Source: a virus (Duplodnaviria; Heunggongvirae; Uroviricota; Caudoviricetes). From it: a stretch of 9,616 nt of DNA. Positions 629-9,288 of the stretch are shown here, one piece after another. Under the pieces are notes generated by a model. That model made no database searches. It was not told the DNA's origin and was given only the letters and a program-made list of their open reading frames with translations. Numbering within the stretch: the stretch's first letter is position 1; every line of letters starts with the position of its first letter. A program made the position numbers and the translations under genes. The DNA is taken from the IMG/VR virus record IMGVR_UViG_2778261570_000015; one strand, given 5' to 3'.

Positions 629-725
629 GAGCTTGCCGTTATGCGGCAACACGGTTTATGGTTATAAGGCACCTCATAAAACGGGTGCCGGGTTTCGCAG
701 CCCGGAAATGTACGAGGCGACACAT

Positions 726-747
726 GACGCGCCGAGCGTCTTTTTTT
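726..747 (+). terminator. Weak intrinsic terminator candidate (5-bp GC-rich stem, 5-nt loop, T7 tract)
   Basis: GACGC (726-730) pairs with GCGTC (736-740), followed by TTTTTTT (741-747). Short stem, so marginal. Confidence 0.35.
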
Positions 748-754
748 GTGCCGT

Positions 755-800
755 TAGCCAGACTCACACTTTTTTCAGTGATGCGGTTATAATCCGCGTC
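755..800 (+). promoter_or_regulatory. Sigma70-type promoter candidate for the primase operon; -10 TATAAT at 788-793 flanked by a GCGG/CCGC inverted repeat
   Basis: Perfect TATAAT hexamer at 788-793; the -35 region is poor (CACACT-like). GCGG (783-786) and CCGC (794-797) embrace the -10, an operator-like arrangement. First SD-bearing start codon downstream is at 950. Confidence 0.35.
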
Positions 801-949
801 GCTTGCAAAATTATGGTGGGCTGGACAGGGCAGCCGAAAGGCTGGCCGGTTTCCTTGTACGCCGGTACTGCGAACTCTGTTCAGTCCACCACCAGCGAGT
901 TTCGCAGCTCCGGTGGTGGGAAGAATTCCCAGTACAAGGAGGCTGCCAC

Positions 950-1144
950 ATGCTGGCTACTACCCCTACCCAAAAACCGCAATTTATCTGGATTATCGCC
1001 GCAGTTCGCCGCGATTGCCCGACAATTACCGCCAAAATTCATCATATTGCTGCCGAGTCTGAACGCGATGCTCGCCGTTCTCTGGTGCGCGATCACATCT
1101 GCTTTTTTGCTGGTCGTATCCGCATGGAGGTGGCACATGATTAA
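950..1144 (+). CDS. Hypothetical small protein, 64 aa (first gene of primase operon)
   Basis: ATG 950 preceded by AAGGAGG (936-942, spacing 7). Codons in this frame are enterobacterial-preferred (CGC/CGT, CTG, ACC, ATC); the alternative long frame here has CTA/TTA/AGG/ATA and about 6% Trp. Stop overlaps the next start. Confidence 0.55.
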   Translation: MLATTPTQKPQFIWIIAAVRRDCPTITAKIHHIAAESERDARRSLVRDHICFFAGRIRMEVAHD

Positions 1145-1355
1145 AACCTACGATGTGCATATGGATCCCCTCGAACGCACAAGCCAGATCATCACACTGA
1201 CAGAAGTGATTAACGACATTCTGGTGAGCAACTCTCCCTCACGAGACGAAAGACTGAAGGCGTTACTCGCGATATTGGATCTCGCCGTTCGTGACGTTCA
1301 TTTCCTGCTGGAAGGTGGACAAATGCCATGCAAAACGGGGGCAACCAATGAATAA
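1137..1355 (+). CDS. Hypothetical small protein, 72 aa
   Basis: ATG 1137 preceded by GGAGG (1126-1130); overlaps the previous stop (ATGATTAA). Same frame as the 288-1355 track ORF, of which it is probably the only real part. Confidence 0.55.
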   Translation: MIKTYDVHMDPLERTSQIITLTEVINDILVSNSPSRDERLKALLAILDLAVRDVHFLLEGGQMPCKTGATNE

Positions 1356-1542
1356 CTCAATTAATACCCCTCGCCTTACGTCCGCACTTCAATTAATCGA
1401 GCAAGCAGCGGCTGTCCTGGTTGCTGTCAGTCTTTCGGCTGAAGAAATGGACGCTGCTGATGTCGTGGATGCGATTAAAGCGTGCTCATCTTTGGTTAAC
1501 GATGCCCGTGCCGAGCTGGTAATTCTTGGGGGTGAAAAATGA
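1348..1542 (+). CDS. Hypothetical small protein, 64 aa (MNNSINTPRL...)
   Basis: ATG 1348 overlaps the previous stop at 1353-1355; GGGGG at 1336-1340 serves as SD. The track ORF 1291-1542 starts from an earlier in-frame ATG without an SD. Confidence 0.5.
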   Translation: MNNSINTPRLTSALQLIEQAAAVLVAVSLSAEEMDAADVVDAIKACSSLVNDARAELVILGGEK

Positions 1543-1802
1543 ATATCAACTTAATTTATCGTCATCCGTGTGAGCTGGAAATTGAATCATTGCTGGGGCG
1601 CGAAGAGCCATATCCAGACACATTCACTCCCGCAGATTGCGCGACTGAACGGCTTACCAGAGCGCGCACAGGTCTGGTTCATGTGATGAATGAGATTGTT
1701 CCCTCGGTGGGAGGGGAACAGGCGACAGTAATCAATAGCTGGCTACAAAAAGTTACCTCCCTGATAGATATCGGTTTAATCGATGTGGAGAGTGCGAAAT
1801 GA
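1539..1802 (+). CDS. Hypothetical small protein, 87 aa
   Basis: ATG 1539 overlaps the previous stop (ATGA); GGGGGTG upstream. Track ORF. Confidence 0.6.
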   Translation: MNINLIYRHPCELEIESLLGREEPYPDTFTPADCATERLTRARTGLVHVMNEIVPSVGGEQATVINSWLQKVTSLIDIGLIDVESAK

Positions 1803-2020
1803 CCAACATCCAGCTCATTGAAGCGCAATGTCGCATCGAACAGGTTCAGACTGTTTTAGGGTTCTGGCTTGAAGGGGCCAGCCCCAGCAACAGAGACAAG
1901 TTAATGATTGGCGCGGTTATGTCACTGCTCAATGGCGTACCAGAAGCTATTCAGGAAGCGGACGAATTGTTGGGCAAATATGAGTTACAGAATCATTCAG
2001 GCGAGGCGAAACATGAATAA
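1799..2020 (+). CDS. Hypothetical small protein, 73 aa
   Basis: ATG 1799 overlaps the previous stop (ATGA); GGAGAG upstream. Track ORF. Confidence 0.6.
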   Translation: MTNIQLIEAQCRIEQVQTVLGFWLEGASPSNRDKLMIGAVMSLLNGVPEAIQEADELLGKYELQNHSGEAKHE

Positions 2021-2615
2021 TTTCTTAACTTTCCATGCAGAAGCAACGCCTGACGGCGTAAACATCATGTACCGCAGCAACGATGGCATGACAGAACGCG
2101 TTGAGACCGTCTCATATATTGATGCCGTAAATCGTCTGGATGCCGGGGATTATGACGATAAACCAGATGAAGGCATGTTTATACATCTCGCTATTGCCAG
2201 TGGCGGCAACCAGGGATATTTCGATTACACATCACAGCATCACGTGATTATGTGGCGCTGGCTGATAGCAACAGCATTCATGCTGGAAATGAGAGAGGAA
2301 AACGGCACTGTCAGCATCATTGATGATACTGGCAATCCTTCCGAAGTGGCTGTTTATTCCAACGACATCGTCGCCATGCCGCTGTATCCAGTAGCAGAGC
2401 GCCTCGCTATGGCAAACAACATTGAGGGCGCGATGATAGAACGTTTTGGCATCGAGTCTGGCACAGAACGCGCCATCATTTTCTACAGAGCCATGATGGA
2501 TGTGGAACAAGGAGCACTGACTCCATTTGGTCGTGAAACGCTTGCTGAACTTCACAACAGCTTTATAGCTGAACTGAATGAAAACGGCATGCCAGCGGAA
2601 CCAGTGACGCACTGA
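2013..2615 (+). CDS. Hypothetical protein, 200 aa (MNNFLTFHAE...)
   Basis: ATG 2013 overlaps the previous stop at 2018-2020 with GAGG upstream. The track ORF 1908-2615 begins at an earlier ATG inside the preceding gene; the coupled start at 2013 is more plausible. Confidence 0.6.
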   Translation: MNNFLTFHAEATPDGVNIMYRSNDGMTERVETVSYIDAVNRLDAGDYDDKPDEGMFIHLAIASGGNQGYFDYTSQHHVIMWRWLIATAFMLEMREENGTVSIIDDTGNPSEVAVYSNDIVAMPLYPVAERLAMANNIEGAMIERFGIESGTERAIIFYRAMMDVEQGALTPFGRETLAELHNSFIAELNENGMPAEPVTH

Positions 2616-2625
2616 GGATGGAGCC

Positions 2626-2967
2626 ATGATTACTAAAAATTTCCGACTGAATGCGCTGGCAAATAAGTATGCGTCAGCACTGTATAACCACATTACCTCC
2701 ACCAGCGGCGGGGACTATTTCATGATTGATGCGGACGGAGAGGCCGTCCGTGTGGAAATCGTCAATGGAGTAAAAGGCGTTCGCAGCCTGATCGATAGTT
2801 ACGCACTGGCAGCCATGAAAGTGTTCTACCCGCAGTGGGAAACCGTGGGGATCGAGCTTCTTGATCGTTGCGTCACTAAGGACAGATTGACTGACGTCGG
2901 GCGTGAGATATGGCAAAGCATGGTTAATGACATGGGCGCAACTGTAGCGGGAGGTTCTCATGCGTGA
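2626..2967 (+). CDS. Hypothetical protein, 113 aa
   Basis: ATG 2626 with GAGGATGGAG upstream; 10-nt gap after the previous stop. Track ORF. Confidence 0.65.
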   Translation: MITKNFRLNALANKYASALYNHITSTSGGDYFMIDADGEAVRVEIVNGVKGVRSLIDSYALAAMKVFYPQWETVGIELLDRCVTKDRLTDVGREIWQSMVNDMGATVAGGSHA

Positions 2968-3331
2968 AAATGTAGAAATGGCGCTTAGCTCCGCAATCGG
3001 AGAGCAGGTGGCAAAGATTGCTGGTGCTGTGTGGATTCATAACCTTCATTCTACTGGTGAAGAGAAAATGGCAATTCAGACGCCAGAGGGACGCACCATT
3101 ACTACATCTCTGAAGCCGTCAGATGTTTGTGATCTGATTTGCGCATTCATGTACCCAGCAATGAGGACTGTCCACGGCGATAAGTGGAAACTTGCGACAA
3201 CCGCTGAATTTGATATGTGGCTAAACAATGATGGCATGCTGACTGATTACGGAATAACCAAGTGGCAGATGCTAGTTAGCCATATCGCAAACGCTATAGA
3301 CCACGTGGGGTACGGTGATGCGAAACATTGA
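2960..3331 (+). CDS. Hypothetical protein, 123 aa
   Basis: ATG 2960 overlaps the previous stop; GGGAGG upstream. Track ORF. Its 3' end overlaps the primase start by 14 nt. Confidence 0.65.
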   Translation: MRENVEMALSSAIGEQVAKIAGAVWIHNLHSTGEEKMAIQTPEGRTITTSLKPSDVCDLICAFMYPAMRTVHGDKWKLATTAEFDMWLNNDGMLTDYGITKWQMLVSHIANAIDHVGYGDAKH

Positions 3332-6074
3332 TCTTATCCGTCAGGTTATCAGTGCGTCTGAAAACAACTGGCCTCATGTGCTGGGCTGCCTGAACATAAA
3401 TGTCCCTGACTCTCCGCGCCGTCATGCTCCCTGCCCTGCATGTGGGGGCAAAGATCGATTCCGGTTCGATGACAACGGGCGCGGTAGCTTCATCTGTAAT
3501 CAGTGCGGCGCTGGTGATGGGCTGGATTTAATTAAACGCGTAAATAACTGCGACACAACAGAGGCGGCGCTTCTTGCCGCTGATGTTCTGGGTATTGATT
3601 ACCGGACAACGGAAACACCAGAAGCCACCAGCCAGAAACGGGAACAACTGGAAACCGAGCGCCAGCGACGCGAACAGGAGCGCCTGAAAAGGGCAGAGAA
3701 GGACGAACAACAAAGACGGGATACGTTTTCCCGTCAGTTTGATGACATGCGCAGAAAGGCTGTAAACGGCAAATCTGATTATCTGGTTGCGAAAGGGGTA
3801 GGTGATTTTACATTCCCCGTGTTGCCCGATGGATCTCTGTTGCTGGCGCTGGTGGATAAATCCGGCGCAGTAACAGCAGCACAGACTATTACCTCACATG
3901 GTGAAAAAAGACTCCTGACAGGTTCAGCAAAGCGAGGGGCATATCACGCCATAAACGCACCAGAAACAACACAGAGCATCTTAATCGCAGAAGGGCTGGC
4001 AACGGCATTATCTGCCCATTTAATGCGTCCAGAGGCGCTGACAGTGGCGGCGATTGATGCCGGGAACCTGTTATATGTCGCCCAGGTACTGCGGGATAAA
4101 TTTCCTTCAGCACAAATCATCATTGCTGCGGATAACGACCACAGCGAAGGAAGACAAAACACGGGGAGAATAGCAGCAGAAAAAGCAGCTTTATCTGTTT
4201 CTGGATGGGTGGCATTACCCCCGACAGATCACAAAGCAGACTGGAATGATTACCACCAAAAACACGGTATTAAATGCGCCACAGAAGCGTTCAATAAGTC
4301 AATGTACCAACCACAGGGTAATGGCGTGAAACAGGAGCCACAGACCATTGAGGGAAGCGATTTTAAGGTTATGGATACCGATCCACTGAAACCAAGAATA
4401 GAAAGCCGCGAGGATGGTATTTATTGGGTATCTCCGAGAGCTGACAGCCAGAGTGGAGAAATCATCAATAACGAAAGCTGGTTATGTTCTCCGTTAAGCG
4501 TTATCGGTACTGGCAGAGACGATAAAGACCAGTATCTCATTCTTCGCTGGCTGTCGTTTGGTTCTGAAACGCCGACAACCGCTGCCATTCCACTGGCTGA
4601 TATTGGTGAACGTGAAGGATGGCGCACACTTAAAGCTGGTGGGGTAAATGTCACGACCAAAAGCAGCCTCAGAGCAATACTGGCAGACTGGCTACAACGC
4701 AGTGGCTCTCGTGAATTGTGGCGTGTTGCTCATGCCACTGGCTGGCAATGCGGAGCGTACATCATGCCTGATGGGGAAATCATCGGAACACCTGAAAATC
4801 CTGTGCTGTTCAGCGGGAGAAGCTCAGCCGCAGCCGGATATACCGTCTCAGGGAGCGCGAAAAGCTGGCGTGATAACGTGGCGCGTCTGGCCTTTGGTAA
4901 CTATTCAATGATGACCGGGATCGGCGCAGCACTGGCAGCGCCATTGATTGGGCTGGTGGGCGCTGACGGGTTCGGCATTCATTTCTATGAGCAGTCGAGC
5001 GCAGGTAAGACCACCACGGCAAACGTGGCGAGCAGCTTATACGGCAACCCTGATTTACTGCGGCTGACGTGGTACGGAACCGCGCTGGGGCTGGCAAATG
5101 AGGCCGCCGCCCACAATGACGGACTAATGCCGCTTGATGAAGTTGGTCAGGGCGCTGATCCTGTCAGCGTTTCACAGTCTGCCTATGCGTTATTTAACGG
5201 TGTAGGGAAACTGCAAGGCGCTAAAGATGGTGGAAACCGGGATCTAAAACGCTGGCGTACAGTGGCAATCAGCACCGGAGAAATGGATTTAGAAACATTT
5301 ATCGCTACTTCCGGGCGAAAAACCAAAGCCGGGCAACTGGTGCGACTGCTGAATATTCCGTTGAGTAAAGCAGTACGCTTTCACGATTACCAGAACGGAA
5401 AACAGCACGCAGACGCACTGAAAGACGCTTACCAGCATCACCACGGCGCGTCCGGGCGTGAGTGGATTAAATGGCTGGCAGACCACCAGCAACAGGCTAT
5501 TAAAACCGTTCGTGACTGCGAAAGCAGATGGAGAAGCCTGATCCCATCCGATTATGGTGAGCAGGTTCACCGTGTAGCCGCGCGATTTGCCATTCTGGAG
5601 GCCGCATTGTTGTTAGGCGAGGTTGTAACAGGCTGGGATGCTCAGACATGCCGTGATGCGATACAGCACAGCTATAACGCATGGTTGCGCGAGTTCGGCA
5701 CAGGTAACAAAGAGCATCAGCAGATTATTGAACAAACGGAGGCATTTCTTAATGCCTATGGGCTTAGCCGTTTTGCACCATTTCCATACAGCCCGGCAGA
5801 TTTGCCCATCAAAGATTTAGCCGGATACCGTCAGCGTGGAGAACATGACGAAAGCCCAATGATTTTCTACACATTCCCGGCCACATTTGAAAAGGAGATC
5901 GCATGTGGTTTCAACGCAAAACAGTTTGCTGAAGTGTTGAAAAAAGCCGGGATGCTAACCCCACCAAACAGCGGTCGTGGATACCAAAGAAAATCACCAC
6001 GTATTCAGGGACGACAAATAAACGTTTATGTACTCAATTACCAGCCAGGAGATTATAACTCATCTGAAGAATGA
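3318..6074 (+). CDS. DNA primase-helicase (replication initiator), about 918 aa: N-terminal zinc ribbon, TOPRIM primase core, P-loop NTPase domain (phage P4 alpha-like / DUF927-like architecture)
   Basis: Zinc ribbon CPACGGKDRFRFDD...CNQCG (about 3420-3524). TOPRIM signatures IAEG and AADNDHSEGR (about 3972-4244). Walker A-like SSAGKTT and Walker B-like LMPLDEVGQ (about 4980-5150). Start ATG 3318 (GGGG at 3307-3310); the track's GTG 3315 is too close to the SD. Confidence 0.9.
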   Translation: MRNIDLIRQVISASENNWPHVLGCLNINVPDSPRRHAPCPACGGKDRFRFDDNGRGSFICNQCGAGDGLDLIKRVNNCDTTEAALLAADVLGIDYRTTETPEATSQKREQLETERQRREQERLKRAEKDEQQRRDTFSRQFDDMRRKAVNGKSDYLVAKGVGDFTFPVLPDGSLLLALVDKSGAVTAAQTITSHGEKRLLTGSAKRGAYHAINAPETTQSILIAEGLATALSAHLMRPEALTVAAIDAGNLLYVAQVLRDKFPSAQIIIAADNDHSEGRQNTGRIAAEKAALSVSGWVALPPTDHKADWNDYHQKHGIKCATEAFNKSMYQPQGNGVKQEPQTIEGSDFKVMDTDPLKPRIESREDGIYWVSPRADSQSGEIINNESWLCSPLSVIGTGRDDKDQYLILRWLSFGSETPTTAAIPLADIGEREGWRTLKAGGVNVTTKSSLRAILADWLQRSGSRELWRVAHATGWQCGAYIMPDGEIIGTPENPVLFSGRSSAAAGYTVSGSAKSWRDNVARLAFGNYSMMTGIGAALAAPLIGLVGADGFGIHFYEQSSAGKTTTANVASSLYGNPDLLRLTWYGTALGLANEAAAHNDGLMPLDEVGQGADPVSVSQSAYALFNGVGKLQGAKDGGNRDLKRWRTVAISTGEMDLETFIATSGRKTKAGQLVRLLNIPLSKAVRFHDYQNGKQHADALKDAYQHHHGASGREWIKWLADHQQQAIKTVRDCESRWRSLIPSDYGEQVHRVAARFAILEAALLLGEVVTGWDAQTCRDAIQHSYNAWLREFGTGNKEHQQIIEQTEAFLNAYGLSRFAPFPYSPADLPIKDLAGYRQRGEHDESPMIFYTFPATFEKEIACGFNAKQFAEVLKKAGMLTPPNSGRGYQRKSPRIQGRQINVYVLNYQPGDYNSSEE

Positions 6075-6097: not shown

Positions 6098-6126
6098 GTG
6101 TTGGTTCAGTTGGTTCAGTTGGTTCA
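6098..6126 (+). repeat. Three tandem direct iterons GTTGGTTCA (first copy extended to GTGTTGGTTCA)
   Basis: Copies at 6098-6108, 6109-6117 and 6118-6126, read directly from the sequence. Confidence 0.7.
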
Positions 6127-6168
6127 ATTTGTAAAGAGTATTGTTTTATAAGGATTTTATTCTTTTTA

Positions 6169-6212
6169 TTGAACCAACACTGAACCAACAACACGGTATT
6201 TTGAACCAACAC
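6169..6212 (+). repeat. Three inverted-orientation iterons TGAACCAAC(AC), reverse complement of the upstream iterons
   Basis: Copies at 6169-6180, 6180-6191 and 6201-6212; centre spacing about 11 and 20-21 bp, roughly one and two helical turns. Confidence 0.7.
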
Positions 6213-6836: not shown

Positions 6837-7298
6837 ATGGAACTAAAATTTATTGATAACCCTGTGCGATTACAGGCCTTTCTTAACGAGCCAGGCAATA
6901 CCGAAAATATTGTTGAGCCGGGGCACACGTACTACATCAAGCCTGATGCGGTATATCTCGGCATCTACGAAGGATTAGTGCTGGCTGGCGTTCATGAAGT
7001 GCGTAACTTCTGGCATAGCGTTGTTGAATGCCATGCGGTGTACGACCCCGGATTCCGTGGTGAATATGCACTGCAAGGACATCGATTATTCTGCAAATGG
7101 CTTCTCGAAAACTCACCATTCCTTAACAGCATCACTATGGTTCCTGACACCACGAAATACGGACGGGCAATTATCCGTTTGCTTGGCGCTACCCGTGTTG
7201 GTCACCTTGATGATGCTTATATCAGATGTGGTAAACCCGTCGGCGTAACGCTTTATCAGTTAACTCGGCAACAATATAAGGAATTCAGCGAATGTTAA
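6837..7298 (+). CDS. Hypothetical protein, 153 aa
   Basis: Track ORF; ATG 6837 with GGATGG upstream; stop overlaps the next start. No family recognised. Confidence 0.7.
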   Translation: MELKFIDNPVRLQAFLNEPGNTENIVEPGHTYYIKPDAVYLGIYEGLVLAGVHEVRNFWHSVVECHAVYDPGFRGEYALQGHRLFCKWLLENSPFLNSITMVPDTTKYGRAIIRLLGATRVGHLDDAYIRCGKPVGVTLYQLTRQQYKEFSEC

Positions 7299-7969
7299 TT
7301 ACCCATATAGCTCATAAACATCTCAATCGTGCCGTATACGAAAAAGGCGGTGATGGTGGTGCCTCTAAAGCTCAGGCGAAGGCCCAGCAGCAGGCAATTG
7401 ATTTGCAGCGCGAGCAGTGGAATACGGTGATGAATAATCTCAAGCCGTATGCAGAAGTCGGATTGCCTGCTTTACAACAACTACAAGGACTGATGACTCT
7501 GGAAGGGCAGAATAAAGCCGCGAATGATTTCTTTGGTTCTGGTTTATATAAAACACAGGCAGATCAGGCCCGTTATCAGAACCTTGTCTCAGCAGAAGCT
7601 ACCGGGGGGCTTGGCTCAACAGCTACCAGTAACCAGTTATCTTCCATTGCGCCCATGCTTTATAACAATTGGCTTAGTGGGCAAATGCAAAATTATGGAA
7701 ACCTGCTAAATGTCGGGATGAATGCGGCATCAGGGCAGGCAACGGCAGGGCAAAACTACGCCAATAATACCGGACAACTCTTGCAGGGGCTTGGCGCTAT
7801 TCGTGCAGGTCAGGCGCAGCAGCCATCCAGTCTTGCGCGTGGTATTGGTGGGGCAGCATCAGGCGCTTTAGCGGGTGCGCAACTTGGTTCCGTTGTTCCT
7901 GGAATAGGAACTGCGGCCGGCGCTATTGGTGGTGGGCTTATTGGTCTTGTTGGGGGGCTTGGATTCTAA
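7292..7969 (+). CDS. Ala/Gln/Gly-rich protein, 225 aa, with a glycine-zipper hydrophobic C-terminus; putative internal-virion/ejection-type protein
   Basis: Track ORF; start overlaps the previous stop; AAGGAA upstream. Low-complexity AQ-rich N-terminal part; C-terminus GIGTAAGAIGGGLIGLVGGLGF. Composition resembles podovirus internal core proteins; not verified by homology. Confidence 0.65.
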   Translation: MLITHIAHKHLNRAVYEKGGDGGASKAQAKAQQQAIDLQREQWNTVMNNLKPYAEVGLPALQQLQGLMTLEGQNKAANDFFGSGLYKTQADQARYQNLVSAEATGGLGSTATSNQLSSIAPMLYNNWLSGQMQNYGNLLNVGMNAASGQATAGQNYANNTGQLLQGLGAIRAGQAQQPSSLARGIGGAASGALAGAQLGSVVPGIGTAAGAIGGGLIGLVGGLGF

Positions 7970-9288
7970 TGGCGACATGGCAACTTGGCGGGCTGCCTAG
8001 CATGGCACCGCAAAATGATAATGCTCCTCGTTCTTCCGTTCCTCAGCCTGTGCAGTATCAGCAGCAGCCAAACGTAGGTTTAATGGCGCTACAGGGGCTA
8101 AGAGGCGTTGCTGAGATTAATCAGCAGGCGCAAATTTCCCAGCAGCTAAAAGAATATCAGGCACGGTTGGGTAGTGCGGTAGCTAATAATGATCGTGTTG
8201 GCGTGCAGAAGTTAATGGCCCAGTATCCCCAGTTTATGGCTGATTCTCAAAAACAGATGGGATTCATTGATGCTGAGCAAAATCGGCAGACCGCTGACGC
8301 TGCCATGAATCTGCGTCTTGCGTCACAAACTGGAGATCCACTGACCATGCAGAAGGCCATTCAGCAGGCAAATCCAGTATTACAGCGATTTGGTCTTCCT
8401 GCTGAAGAGGTTTATCAGTCTTGGCAGAATGACCCACAGGAATTCAACAGAATCACTGACCTCATCCACCTCCATGCTGATCCAAATAGTTACTTTAGTG
8501 TTCAAGAGAAGCAGCAAGGGCAGAGTATTGCACAGCAGAACGCAGATACATCTGCATATAATGCTCAGGTTAATGCGGAGCAGGGTAATCGGCGGCTCGA
8601 TATGGAGCAGTTCAAAGTCCTATCCGATAACCAACTACGCACGAGAGAAATGGTTCTGAAAGCACGACTTGGACGTGCTCAAAATGACATCGAGAGAGAC
8701 AAGCTCAATGCTGAACTGAGCAAGGTACAGCAGGCGAAAGTGGAGAAGATGAACGATAAAATTAATACTGTTGCAGGTAATATCGACTCCTTGAACTCTG
8801 CGCTTGAAGTGGGTCATGAACTGGCGGGAATTGTAGGGAAACATCCTTCGGCCGTTACCCGTTCGCAGAACTATAACCCCCTGACGCTGGGGTTTGGATT
8901 CCTCCCTGATGTAGCAGAAGACACACGAAGCCTACGCGCCAAAGCTGATGAATACAACCTAAAGGTTATTCTGCCTAGCCTAAAAGGTACTTTTGGCTCT
9001 AACCCAACCGAAGGGGAAAGGGCTGCCCTTATGCAATCTCAAAATGGCATTAAGTCAGCAACCAGCAATGAGGCATTTTTGCGAGAGTTGAATAAAGCGC
9101 AGGACGTAATTATTCGAATGCAGAAACGACAGATTGCCGGGCTCGGTATTCCTGTAACCAAATCTAAGGACGAAGAAACTGATACCAAAATGCTGTTGCA
9201 GGATCCTTCACTGGTTAAGGATTATGTGACCGCACATGGCTATCTGCCGGAAAGTTACTATCAGGCAAAACTTAAGGGATGGCAATGA
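7969..9288 (+). CDS. Gln/Ala-rich protein, 439 aa; putative internal-virion/ejection-type protein
   Basis: Track ORF; TAATG overlap with the previous gene and TGA overlap with the next. Q/A-rich, coiled-coil-like composition. Confidence 0.7.
   Translation: MATWQLGGLPSMAPQNDNAPRSSVPQPVQYQQQPNVGLMALQGLRGVAEINQQAQISQQLKEYQARLGSAVANNDRVGVQKLMAQYPQFMADSQKQMGFIDAEQNRQTADAAMNLRLASQTGDPLTMQKAIQQANPVLQRFGLPAEEVYQSWQNDPQEFNRITDLIHLHADPNSYFSVQEKQQGQSIAQQNADTSAYNAQVNAEQGNRRLDMEQFKVLSDNQLRTREMVLKARLGRAQNDIERDKLNAELSKVQQAKVEKMNDKINTVAGNIDSLNSALEVGHELAGIVGKHPSAVTRSQNYNPLTLGFGFLPDVAEDTRSLRAKADEYNLKVILPSLKGTFGSNPTEGERAALMQSQNGIKSATSNEAFLRELNKAQDVIIRMQKRQIAGLGIPVTKSKDEETDTKMLLQDPSLVKDYVTAHGYLPESYYQAKLKGWQ

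Follow-up and report, generated by a model that had tools for sequence, protein, structure and literature searches.

A probable antisense-RNA-gated early operon of eight small coupled genes and a primase in a PICI/P4-type satellite island of Escherichia coli

The 9,616-nucleotide (nt) stretch of DNA analysed here (hereafter the window; IMG/VR virus record IMGVR_UViG_2778261570_000015, Caudoviricetes) carries, at positions 950-3331 of its + strand, eight small open reading frames (ORFs), numbered ORF1 to ORF8 in order, which are followed by the gene of a primase-helicase. An original prediction, made from the letters alone, had described them as a tightly coupled run of genes lacking any recognisable function. 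In this work, we compared the window with a set of related loci and islands, designated by L-numbers (L001 is the island of E. coli CV839-06), and with known satellites and phages. Our results make it likely that ORF1-8 and the primase gene constitute the antisense-RNA-gated early ("left") operon of a satellite of the P4 or phage-inducible chromosomal island (PICI) type, inserted next to yicC in E. coli.

Results

The operon comprises the following genes (sizes in amino acids, aa):

950-1144, + strand: ORF1, 64 aa, basic; Icd-like and P4 Kil-like; predicted first cistron under C4 control
1137-1355, + strand: ORF2, 72 aa, acidic; found in a single lineage; weakly supported as a gene
1348-1542, + strand: ORF3, 64 aa, acidic; found in a single lineage; possible diverged relative of ORF5
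1539-1802, + strand: ORF4, 87 aa; conserved family of unknown function
1799-2020, + strand: ORF5, 73 aa; conserved family phrog_20558, of unknown function
2013-2615, + strand: ORF6, 200 aa, strongly acidic; phrog_1515, of unknown function
2626-2967, + strand: ORF7, 113 aa; conserved family phrog_37628; modelled fold helical plus a beta-hairpin
2960-3331, + strand: ORF8, 123 aa; diverged paralog of ORF7 by profile comparison; overlaps the primase start
3318-6074, + strand: primase-helicase, 918 aa (Zn ribbon, Toprim_3 and DUF927; Pfam and PHROGs); last gene of the operon

The sizes and positions originally given for the eight ORFs match exactly, and the chain that they form is not attributable to chance, since the longest chain of coupled ORFs in 500 dinucleotide shuffles was 4 (usually 1); the reverse strand of the region holds a coupled chain of only 2. 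The claim that start codons overlap the preceding stop proved right for six of the seven junctions, with overlaps of 4-8 nt, the remaining junction being a gap of 10 nt (in order: -8, -8, -4, -4, -8, +10 and -8 nt). ORF8 and the primase gene overlap by 14-17 nt, the start codon of the latter being 3315 (GTG) or 3318 (ATG). All eight ORFs start with ATG and each has, as predicted, its own purine-rich Shine-Dalgarno (SD)-like motif 5' of it. ORF2-8 encode acidic proteins (isoelectric points 4.2-5.6), with a net charge of -21 for ORF6, and ORF1 a basic one.

Purifying selection was evident for five of the ORFs, with pooled ratios of non-synonymous to synonymous polymorphism (pN/pS) of 0.25 for ORF1 (over 17 sequences), 0.45 for ORF4, 0.46 for ORF5, 0.32 for ORF6 and 0.33 for ORF7; these values are uncorrected and the true ratios are lower. 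For ORF2, ORF3 and ORF8 the changes observed within the lineage (synonymous and non-synonymous, respectively: 7 and 7, 4 and 2, 2 and 1) fit mild purifying selection, in counts that are underpowered. The absence of recognisable functions claimed for the whole run was borne out for all of the eight ORFs except ORF1: the other seven matched no family of known function in Pfam, NCBIfam, PHROGs, PADLOC or the PDB; PHROGs matches for ORF5, ORF6 and ORF7 were to families of unknown function, PADLOC matches were noise, and PDB profile searches with ORF4, ORF6, ORF7 and ORF8 gave nothing meaningful.

Directly 5' of ORF1 lie two regulatory RNA genes that had been overlooked in the first reading and that would explain the tight coupling of the ORFs. 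The module contains the following features:

633-662, + strand: putative constitutive promoter (-35 TTGCCG, 18-nt spacer, -10 TATGGT), read from the sequence
669-746, + strand: isrK/P4 seqA-like RNA (Rfam RF01394, 69 bits), carrying the upstream C4 target sites
726-746, + strand: intrinsic terminator of isrK (hairpin plus T-run, terminator scan)
809-896, + strand: C4/P4 CI-like antisense RNA (Rfam RF01695, 81.1 bits)
about 850-861, + strand: b' loop of C4 (hairpin 2), UUUCCUUGUAC
about 867-878, + strand: a' segment of C4, CUGCGAAC
897-942, + strand: downstream target region (P4 seqC-like), with sites a2 and b2
about 897-907, + strand: downstream target a2 (P4 seqC-like), GAGTTTCGCAG, complementary to the a' segment
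932-942, + strand: downstream target b2 (P4 seqC-like), GTACAAGGAGG, containing the SD of ORF1

The C4 match is full-length (model positions 1-87; gathering score 45), its end lies 53 nt from the start of ORF1, and isrK and C4 precede the Icd ORF in all 12 loci inspected from other genera. In the literature, isrK has been equated with P4 seqA and C4 with the P4 immunity RNA CI, which pairs with seqA and seqC and thereby causes premature termination, so that the P4 replication genes stay silent; the eta/kil arrangement of P4 has been described as well (PMC4825925; PMC3632133; PMC10111431). The putative promoter motif ends 7 nt before the 5' end of isrK and is conserved in an alignment of 20 loci.

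The pairing potential of C4 with its targets could be followed across immunity types. The b' loop is complementary over 11 nt to GUACAAGGAGG (932-942), within which the AAGGAGG SD of ORF1 occupies 936-942, and the predicted duplex between b' loop and b2 has an energy of -14.9 kcal/mol. The two downstream-target duplexes reach -14.9 and -14.6 kcal/mol and the cognate duplexes with C4 on the isrK side -11.7 and -13.7 kcal/mol. In an alignment of the 330 nt 5' of the Icd start, which included the window, 18 related loci and P4, the loop and the SD-proximal target change together in every immunity type, as in the loop/target pairs CCUUUGUGU/ACACAAAGG, CCAUUCGA/UCGAAUGG and CUAUACAG/CUGUAUAG and in the P4 pair CCUGUGAA/UUCACAGG. 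Among 13 immunity types, P4 included, pairing of the b' loop with the SD region averaged -14.2 kcal/mol for cognate and -6.1 kcal/mol for non-cognate combinations, and the cognate pair was the best or tied best in 12 of the 13. The a' segment matches GAGUUUCGCAG (897-907) and the isrK loop, a correspondence that is clear in the alignment.

Immunity types look like they have been exchanged by recombinational swapping: the RNA cassette (657-949) is 59-75% identical between the window and L004, L005, L006, L020 and L022, its flanks are 95-100% identical, and at least 13 loop/target specificities occur among the loci examined. Between isrK and C4, we also observed a perfect TATAAT box (788-793, within the stretch 781-800), possibly a second promoter, for C4. 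The stretch of about 27 nt that bears it appears intact only in some immunity types (the window, L005/L006, L010 and L012) and shorter in a few others.

ORF1 is the exception to the lack of recognisable functions. It matches the NCBIfam profile NF033153 (host cell division inhibitor Icd-like) over positions 1-48 of 48 with 70.4 bits (cut-off 25), is 41% identical to the kil region of P4 (the C-terminal part of the old P4 "cI" ORF), and aligns with Icd of a P1-like plasmid in which c4, icd and ant follow one another (E 2e-6), with an identity of 26% by BLASTP and 32% by MAFFT. A tblastn search against phages gave no match at 1e-3, the query being too short for that database. ORF1 thus probably encodes a division inhibitor or another toxic early protein, judging by these similarities. 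In the comparison with P4 early-operon proteins that had been suggested, hhalign of the eight ORFs against epsilon, orf151 and cnr of P4 gave no significant match (E at least 0.025).

In current annotation, ORF1 is concealed by a longer frame:

288-1355, + strand: "ash family protein" ORF (P4 eta-like), 355 aa; RefSeq annotation by the Prokaryotic Genome Annotation Pipeline (PGAP)

This frame, annotated by PGAP as a single coding sequence (288-1355) in L001 and L004-L006, crosses isrK and C4, covers ORF1 in another frame and continues in the frame of ORF2. Its match to Pfam Phage_ASH spans aa 124-232, that is, nt 657-983, the isrK and C4 stretch, where the three codon positions of the Ash frame hold similar numbers of variable sites (41, 37 and 39). 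With no codon periodicity, this stretch evolves as an exchangeable RNA immunity cassette and not as a protein. On this evidence, the Pfam Ash family is largely a model of RNA genes in translation, and in this genome the annotation masks an Icd-like gene. C4 and isrK matches inside the Bro-network (Ash/eta) genes of Gram-negative PICIs had already been noted (PMC10111431).

The long frame is broken in L020 and L022, where ORF1 is intact and separately annotated as Icd-like; ORF2 is annotated on its own by PGAP in L020 and L021 and is frameshifted in L022. In 14 loci outside the lineage of the window, and in L027 and P4, the Ash frame is in frame with Icd (the nested eta/kil layout), L027 having a separate ORF2 after the in-frame Ash-Icd. 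Icd is out of frame with Ash in the E. coli lineage of the window because the SD-ATG spacer (946-950) is 1 nt shorter, GCCAC-ATG replacing GCCATCATG or GCCGCTATG. The possibility that the Ash ORF has been selected to run into ORF2 was considered and rejected, given the separate ORF2 of L027 and the broken Ash frames of L020 and L022; as far as these alignments tell, its continuation into ORF2 is incidental.

The operon was mapped in 19 loci from Escherichia, Kluyvera, Scandinavium, Shimwellia, Kosakonia, Enterobacter, Lonsdalea and Atlantibacter, which share a common plan: Icd, one to three small ORFs, ORF6, an optional ORF7 and the primase. Nearly every junction in the mapped operons is an ATGA overlap, so coupling is conserved. 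The small ORFs after Icd are drawn from unrelated families (ORF4-like of 87 aa, ORF5-like of 73 aa, and families of 65, 66, 59 and 104 aa), ORF6 (196-208 aa) is nearly always present, and among these loci ORF2, ORF3 and ORF8 were found only in the window's own lineage.

ORF2-5, which are replaced elsewhere by other small families, behave as an exchangeable accessory cassette, to judge from this mosaic distribution. ORF2 and ORF3 are confined to an E. coli/Salmonella lineage; among 5426 complete E. coli genomes, 490 carry the pair, with identities never below 95%, and for ORF2 no more than 20 protein clusters were found, which share at least 73% identity. The ORF2 frame is shifted in L022 and L027 and is joined to that of ORF3 by a 177-nt deletion in L026, although these three loci were chosen as divergent and therefore overstate the frequency of disruption. 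ORF4 has orthologs of about 50% identity in Enterobacter, Kosakonia, Shimwellia and Lonsdalea and of 27% in Kluyvera, and ORF5 orthologs of about 41% identity, with two tandem ORF5-like genes in L003. A distant relationship of ORF3 to the ORF5 family is possible: the hidden Markov model (HMM) of that family gives ORF3 8.1 bits, which 3 of 1000 shuffles also attained. The candidate notion that ORF2-5 form one paralogous helical family was rejected by all-against-all BLASTP and hhalign, which left only this weak ORF3-ORF5 link.

Like ORF4 and ORF5, ORF6 and ORF7 are conserved families of the Enterobacterales. The ORF6 family (550 homologs) has many invariant columns. Of 21 related operons, 20 contain ORF6, 18 of them having been retrieved with ORF6 or ORF6-containing DNA as query. 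The AlphaFold2 model of ORF6 was poor (predicted local distance difference test score 52) and too weak for a structure search. The ORF7 family (137 members) reaches Yersinia, Serratia and Pectobacterium, and its confident predicted model had no informative structural match and no known fold. At 31-36% identity, ORF6 has homologs in phiP27, several Stx1a/Stx2a phages and Klebsiella prophages, each time in the early-left region, and ORF7 has homologs in phi467 and one other phage record. In the two phage contexts inspected, the ORF6 homolog of phiP27 lies among unnamed early genes between the repressor region and xis/int, and the ORF7 homolog of phi467 among unnamed early genes upstream of a recombinase gene, with no primase near either. 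Such a gene context speaks for a general accessory role of ORF6 and ORF7 among the early genes of temperate elements, and against one as primase cofactors.

ORF8 is, by profile comparison, a diverged paralog of ORF7 (hhalign probability 94.8%, E 5e-8, 91 columns), and the ORF7 HMM gives it 15.2 bits, against at most 7.2 in 500 shuffles. Its own family is small, extends down to 39% identity and has a conserved GYGDAKH end; in E. coli it is present in 252 of 5426 complete genomes, always at 95% identity or more. In L029 (GCA_900215445.1, 4001-5092), an ORF8 homolog of 39% identity adjoins a P22_gp7-like gene and not a primase. Similarity between ORF6 and ORF7 is weak (hhalign E 0.007), and that between the C-terminus of ORF6 and P4 Cnr is faint (hhalign E 0.036; HMM P 0.002). 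A precomputed flag for PF17345 (DUF5375, the Cnr family) stands on three ORF6 homologs, and a rescan matched none of 16 members.

L005, L006 and L020 lack ORF7 and ORF8, yet their primase is 99% identical; L007 lacks ORF6. The helicase part encoded behind the same small ORFs is of the DUF927, P4-family or DUF5906 type, the C-terminal part of the window primase being DUF927 and the primases of L003 and L007 having a P4-family helicase domain. On this comparison, the replication gene shows domain or module swapping. We also noted that the Zn-ribbon/Toprim N-terminus, about 72-85% identical, is joined to three helicase parts (L003 7759-10200, L007 4339-6780 and L026 4307-6201). Immediately after the primase stop lies a repeat array:

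6100-6212, no strand assigned: probable replication origin, in which an AT-rich spacer separates three direct copies of GTTGGTTCA from three inverted ones (TGAACCAAC)

The direct GTTGGTTCA repeats have a period of 9 nt and the G+C fraction falls to 0.40.

Many E. coli chromosomes carry, adjacent to yicC, an island to which the window is 99% identical. The genes of L001 are, in order, int, a hypothetical gene, a 67-aa helix-turn-helix (HTH) gene, a hypothetical gene, AntA/AntB, DUF4222, the "ash family protein", six hypothetical genes, the TOPRIM/DUF927 primase, P22-like gp14, gp7 and gp20, and a lytic-transglycosylase protein. The 67-aa HTH gene corresponds to a Pfam Phage_AlpA match in the sister locus L026. 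The set of genes typical of PICIs (int, alpA, a primase/replication module and late genes of phage origin) is thus present, and, as in that group, the genes share one orientation and an island in the range of about 10-20 kb. The annotation of L001 (19 kb) lists no psu, sid, delta or epsilon, so it is not a P4-like satellite sensu stricto. Two further features of the window lie 5' of the operon:

28-294, + strand: DUF4222 ORF (Pfam PF13973, 85 bits), whose stop overlaps the start of the long Ash ORF
436-542, - strand: fragment of a P22-type small-terminase gene (gene 3), 107 nt, 88% identical to nt 268-374 of gene 3 of APC_JM3.2

The DUF4222 ORF belongs to an upstream coupled chain of AlpA, AntA and DUF4222 genes. 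Homology of the gene-3 fragment begins exactly at the pac 22-mer (GAAGGTTTTTGTGGAGTCACTA in the window and GAAGATTTATCTGAAGTCGTTA in P22, 16 of 22 positions identical), and the 22-mer of the window fits 16 of 17 positions of the published pseudo-pac pattern. A search for the exact P22 pac 22-mer with up to three mismatches did not find it, the diverged copy emerging only from the gene-3 fragment alignment; in L022, PGAP calls the fragment a "DNA-packaging protein" pseudogene fragment. This suggests that the island may borrow the packaging signal of P22-like helpers. The late genes (6837-9288 in the window; 15783-20951 in L001) encode homologs of P22 gp14 (DUF2824), gp7 and gp20, and a 906-aa lytic-transglycosylase protein stands in the position of gp16, giving a full ejection-protein set in P22 order; in the literature searched, we found no description of satellites with such a P22-type set. 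Together with the pac fragment, the late genes point to helpers that would be P22-like rather than lambdoid cos phages.

Two minor observations concern the surroundings of the islands. The Rfam int-alpA RNA motif occurs in 7 of the 12 loci scanned (L003, L009, L012 and L016-L019), downstream of the integrase gene (for example, L003 2565-2631; its position was compared with the annotation in L003 only). In CV839-06, a gene for a "reverse transcriptase family protein" (L001 1413-2372), flanked by slmA and pyrE, stands at a distance of a few kb from the island; it is a possible retron with no apparent link to the operon.

Discussion

Taken together, these results point towards a single regulatory switch in front of the whole run of small genes. 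A constitutive promoter just 5' of isrK would make a leader RNA that mostly ends at the isrK terminator, read-through yielding the C4/CI-like RNA. Two segments of C4 would pair with sites upstream, in isrK, and downstream, where b2 covers the SD of ORF1; translation of the first cistron would be blocked, which would expose the transcript to premature termination, as in P1 immI and P4. By homology with these systems, one RNA-RNA contact would silence ORF1-8 and the primase together in the integrated state, since each cistron overlaps the stop of its neighbour. After infection by a helper, or induction, transcription would enter from the AlpA-AntA-DUF4222 genes, and translation of the RNA region as an Ash/eta-like ORF would, as proposed from P4, prevent the RNA structures and termination and turn the operon on. 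The likeness to satellite early operons that had been pointed out originally is thereby given a concrete form, as the head of the operon is homologous to the P4 left and P1 immI operons (seqA/isrK, CI/C4 and kil/icd).

Several points weigh against this interpretation. The nested in-frame eta/kil arrangement of P4 is absent from the window, owing to the 1-nt deletion described above. In the crude energy matrix, pairing of the a' segment was not distinct from that of non-cognate pairs. The consensus promoter scan did not report the putative promoter at 633-662, which fell below its threshold. The transcription start, RNA processing, Rho dependence and translational repression are all taken over from homologous systems. 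Besides, ORF2-8 have no match to a family of known function, a fold or a motif, so that their functions are a guess, and for ORF2 and ORF3, which are disrupted in three relatives, the evidence is thin.

Three alternative explanations bear on what the genes of the operon are. In one of them, ORF1 and ORF2 would not be separate genes, and the real product would be the 355-aa "ash family protein" followed by six small genes only. PGAP does annotate one coding sequence (288-1355), a 355-codon open frame is improbable by chance, and the P4 eta ORF, the equivalent of the long Ash ORF, has been reported to be translated (PMC10111431). Nevertheless, we consider this very unlikely, given that the long frame is broken in L020 and L022 with ORF1 intact, that ORF2 is intact in L020 and L021, that in L027 the Ash frame ends in frame with Icd and ORF2 stands apart, that the Ash domain coincides with isrK and C4 and its substitutions lack codon periodicity, and that ORF1 in its own frame is Icd-like and conserved across genera. 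Both readings are compatible in so far as the long ORF may be translated for anti-termination and yield no functional protein. Another concerns ORF2 and ORF3, which could be young or decaying ORFs without protein function, kept open only for coupling of ribosomes from ORF1 to ORF4. Their restriction to one lineage, in which copies are nearly identical in E. coli, the ORF2 frameshifts and the ORF2-ORF3 fusion speak for it, as does the arrangement in other genera, where ORF1 stands directly before ORF4-like or other families. This seems to us rather unlikely, because substitutions lean synonymous (7:7 in ORF2 and 4:2 in ORF3, where the neutral expectation is about 1:3), each ORF has its own SD and ATG, ORF3 outscores 997 of 1000 shuffles against the ORF5 family, and hundreds of intact copies exist.

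The remaining alternative regards the other end of the operon and takes ORF6-8 as replication accessory factors of the primase-helicase, such as Cnr-like copy-number regulators or loaders. These genes lie directly 5' of the primase gene, with translational coupling to it in many loci; cnr holds this place in P4, and in L028 an ORF8-like gene stands immediately 5' of a 43-aa fragment at the contig end that is probably the primase. The faint similarity of the ORF6 C-terminus to Cnr and the PF17345 flag on three homologs point the same way, but the former is not significant and the latter was not recovered among 16 members. Moreover, islands with a 99% identical primase do without ORF7 and ORF8 and L007 without ORF6, the same small ORFs precede three unrelated helicase domains (DUF927, P4-family and DUF5906), and the homologs in phiP27, Stx phages and phi467 are not beside a primase. 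We regard a role as primase accessory factors as improbable. Our best guess is instead that ORF2-8 are non-essential early proteins that manipulate the host or the helper, rather than core replication factors; confidence in any individual protein function is low. It is possible, though doubtful, that the acidic ORF2-8 proteins make up an undescribed toolkit which would derepress or exploit a P22-like helper or disarm host defences, with one of them the functional counterpart of P4 epsilon for such helpers, and which would be released only when the C4 lock opens.

The regulatory design and the type of element are, on the comparisons made here, already known from P4, P1 immI and Gram-negative PICIs, and it is the small protein families that are uncharacterised. 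Within the antisense-gated operon favoured here, the "hypothetical" genes that about 5-9% of complete E. coli genomes carry in a row fit a known antisense-RNA gating design, the annotation is corrected at an "ash family protein" that lies over two RNA genes and masks an Icd-like one, and the unknowns are narrowed to a few families (ORF4, ORF5, ORF6 and the ORF7/8 fold). Should the small proteins indeed manipulate helpers or defences, they would offer an entry point to the exploitation of P22-like phages by satellites, of which the literature searched held no description. More unusual than the operon itself are the pac-site fragment and the ejection-protein genes, which point to P22-like helpers.

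Among the closest known counterparts is the left operon of P4, ordered PLE, seqA, CI RNA, seqC, kil/eta, epsilon, orf151, cnr and alpha. It shares with the window a target RNA and an antisense RNA, a Kil/Icd-like first cistron whose ribosome-binding site is covered by a second target, and a series of small coupled ORFs that leads to a Zn-ribbon/Toprim primase-helicase. The RNA regions of the two align base for base, and the N-terminus of the window primase is 33% identical to alpha. In contrast, the helicase part is DUF927 in the window and of the P4 family in P4, none of the small window ORFs that follow the kil-like gene significantly resembles epsilon, orf151 or cnr, and the Icd and eta-like frames do not coincide in the window's lineage. 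The island also has no annotated psu, sid or delta, and its late genes encode P22-like ejection proteins and not capsid-size determinants. The immI operon of P1/P7 (c4 RNA, icd, ant) resembles the window in its C4 RNA, to which the window matches the covariance model with 81 bits, and in an Icd-like first cistron that has its SD in the b2 target and is followed by a translationally coupled gene; a P1-like plasmid with the c4-icd layout aligns with window positions 652-991. However, the cargo after icd is the antirepressor Ant in P1 and seven small ORFs plus a primase in the window, where the AntA/AntB gene lies upstream and not downstream.

With Gram-negative PICIs (PMC10111431), the island shares the order of Integration, Bro, Replication and Late zones, and the presence of int, an AlpA-like HTH gene, AntA/Ash with C4 and isrK RNAs, a primase, a probable iteron origin and captured late genes. 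That work does not describe small ORFs between the immunity RNA and the primase, and the late genes and pac fragment of the window suggest P22-like helpers and not lambdoid cos ones. A further parallel is found in the isrK-orf45-anrP region of Gifsy-1 in Salmonella (PMC4825925), where isrK likewise carries a terminator, the RNA downstream is processed, and the effector gene is coupled by AUGA to a short ORF in front of it. There, IsrK activates translation in trans and the effector is an antiterminator, whereas the architecture of the window is of the repressive P4/P1 type and its cargo is unlike that of Gifsy-1.

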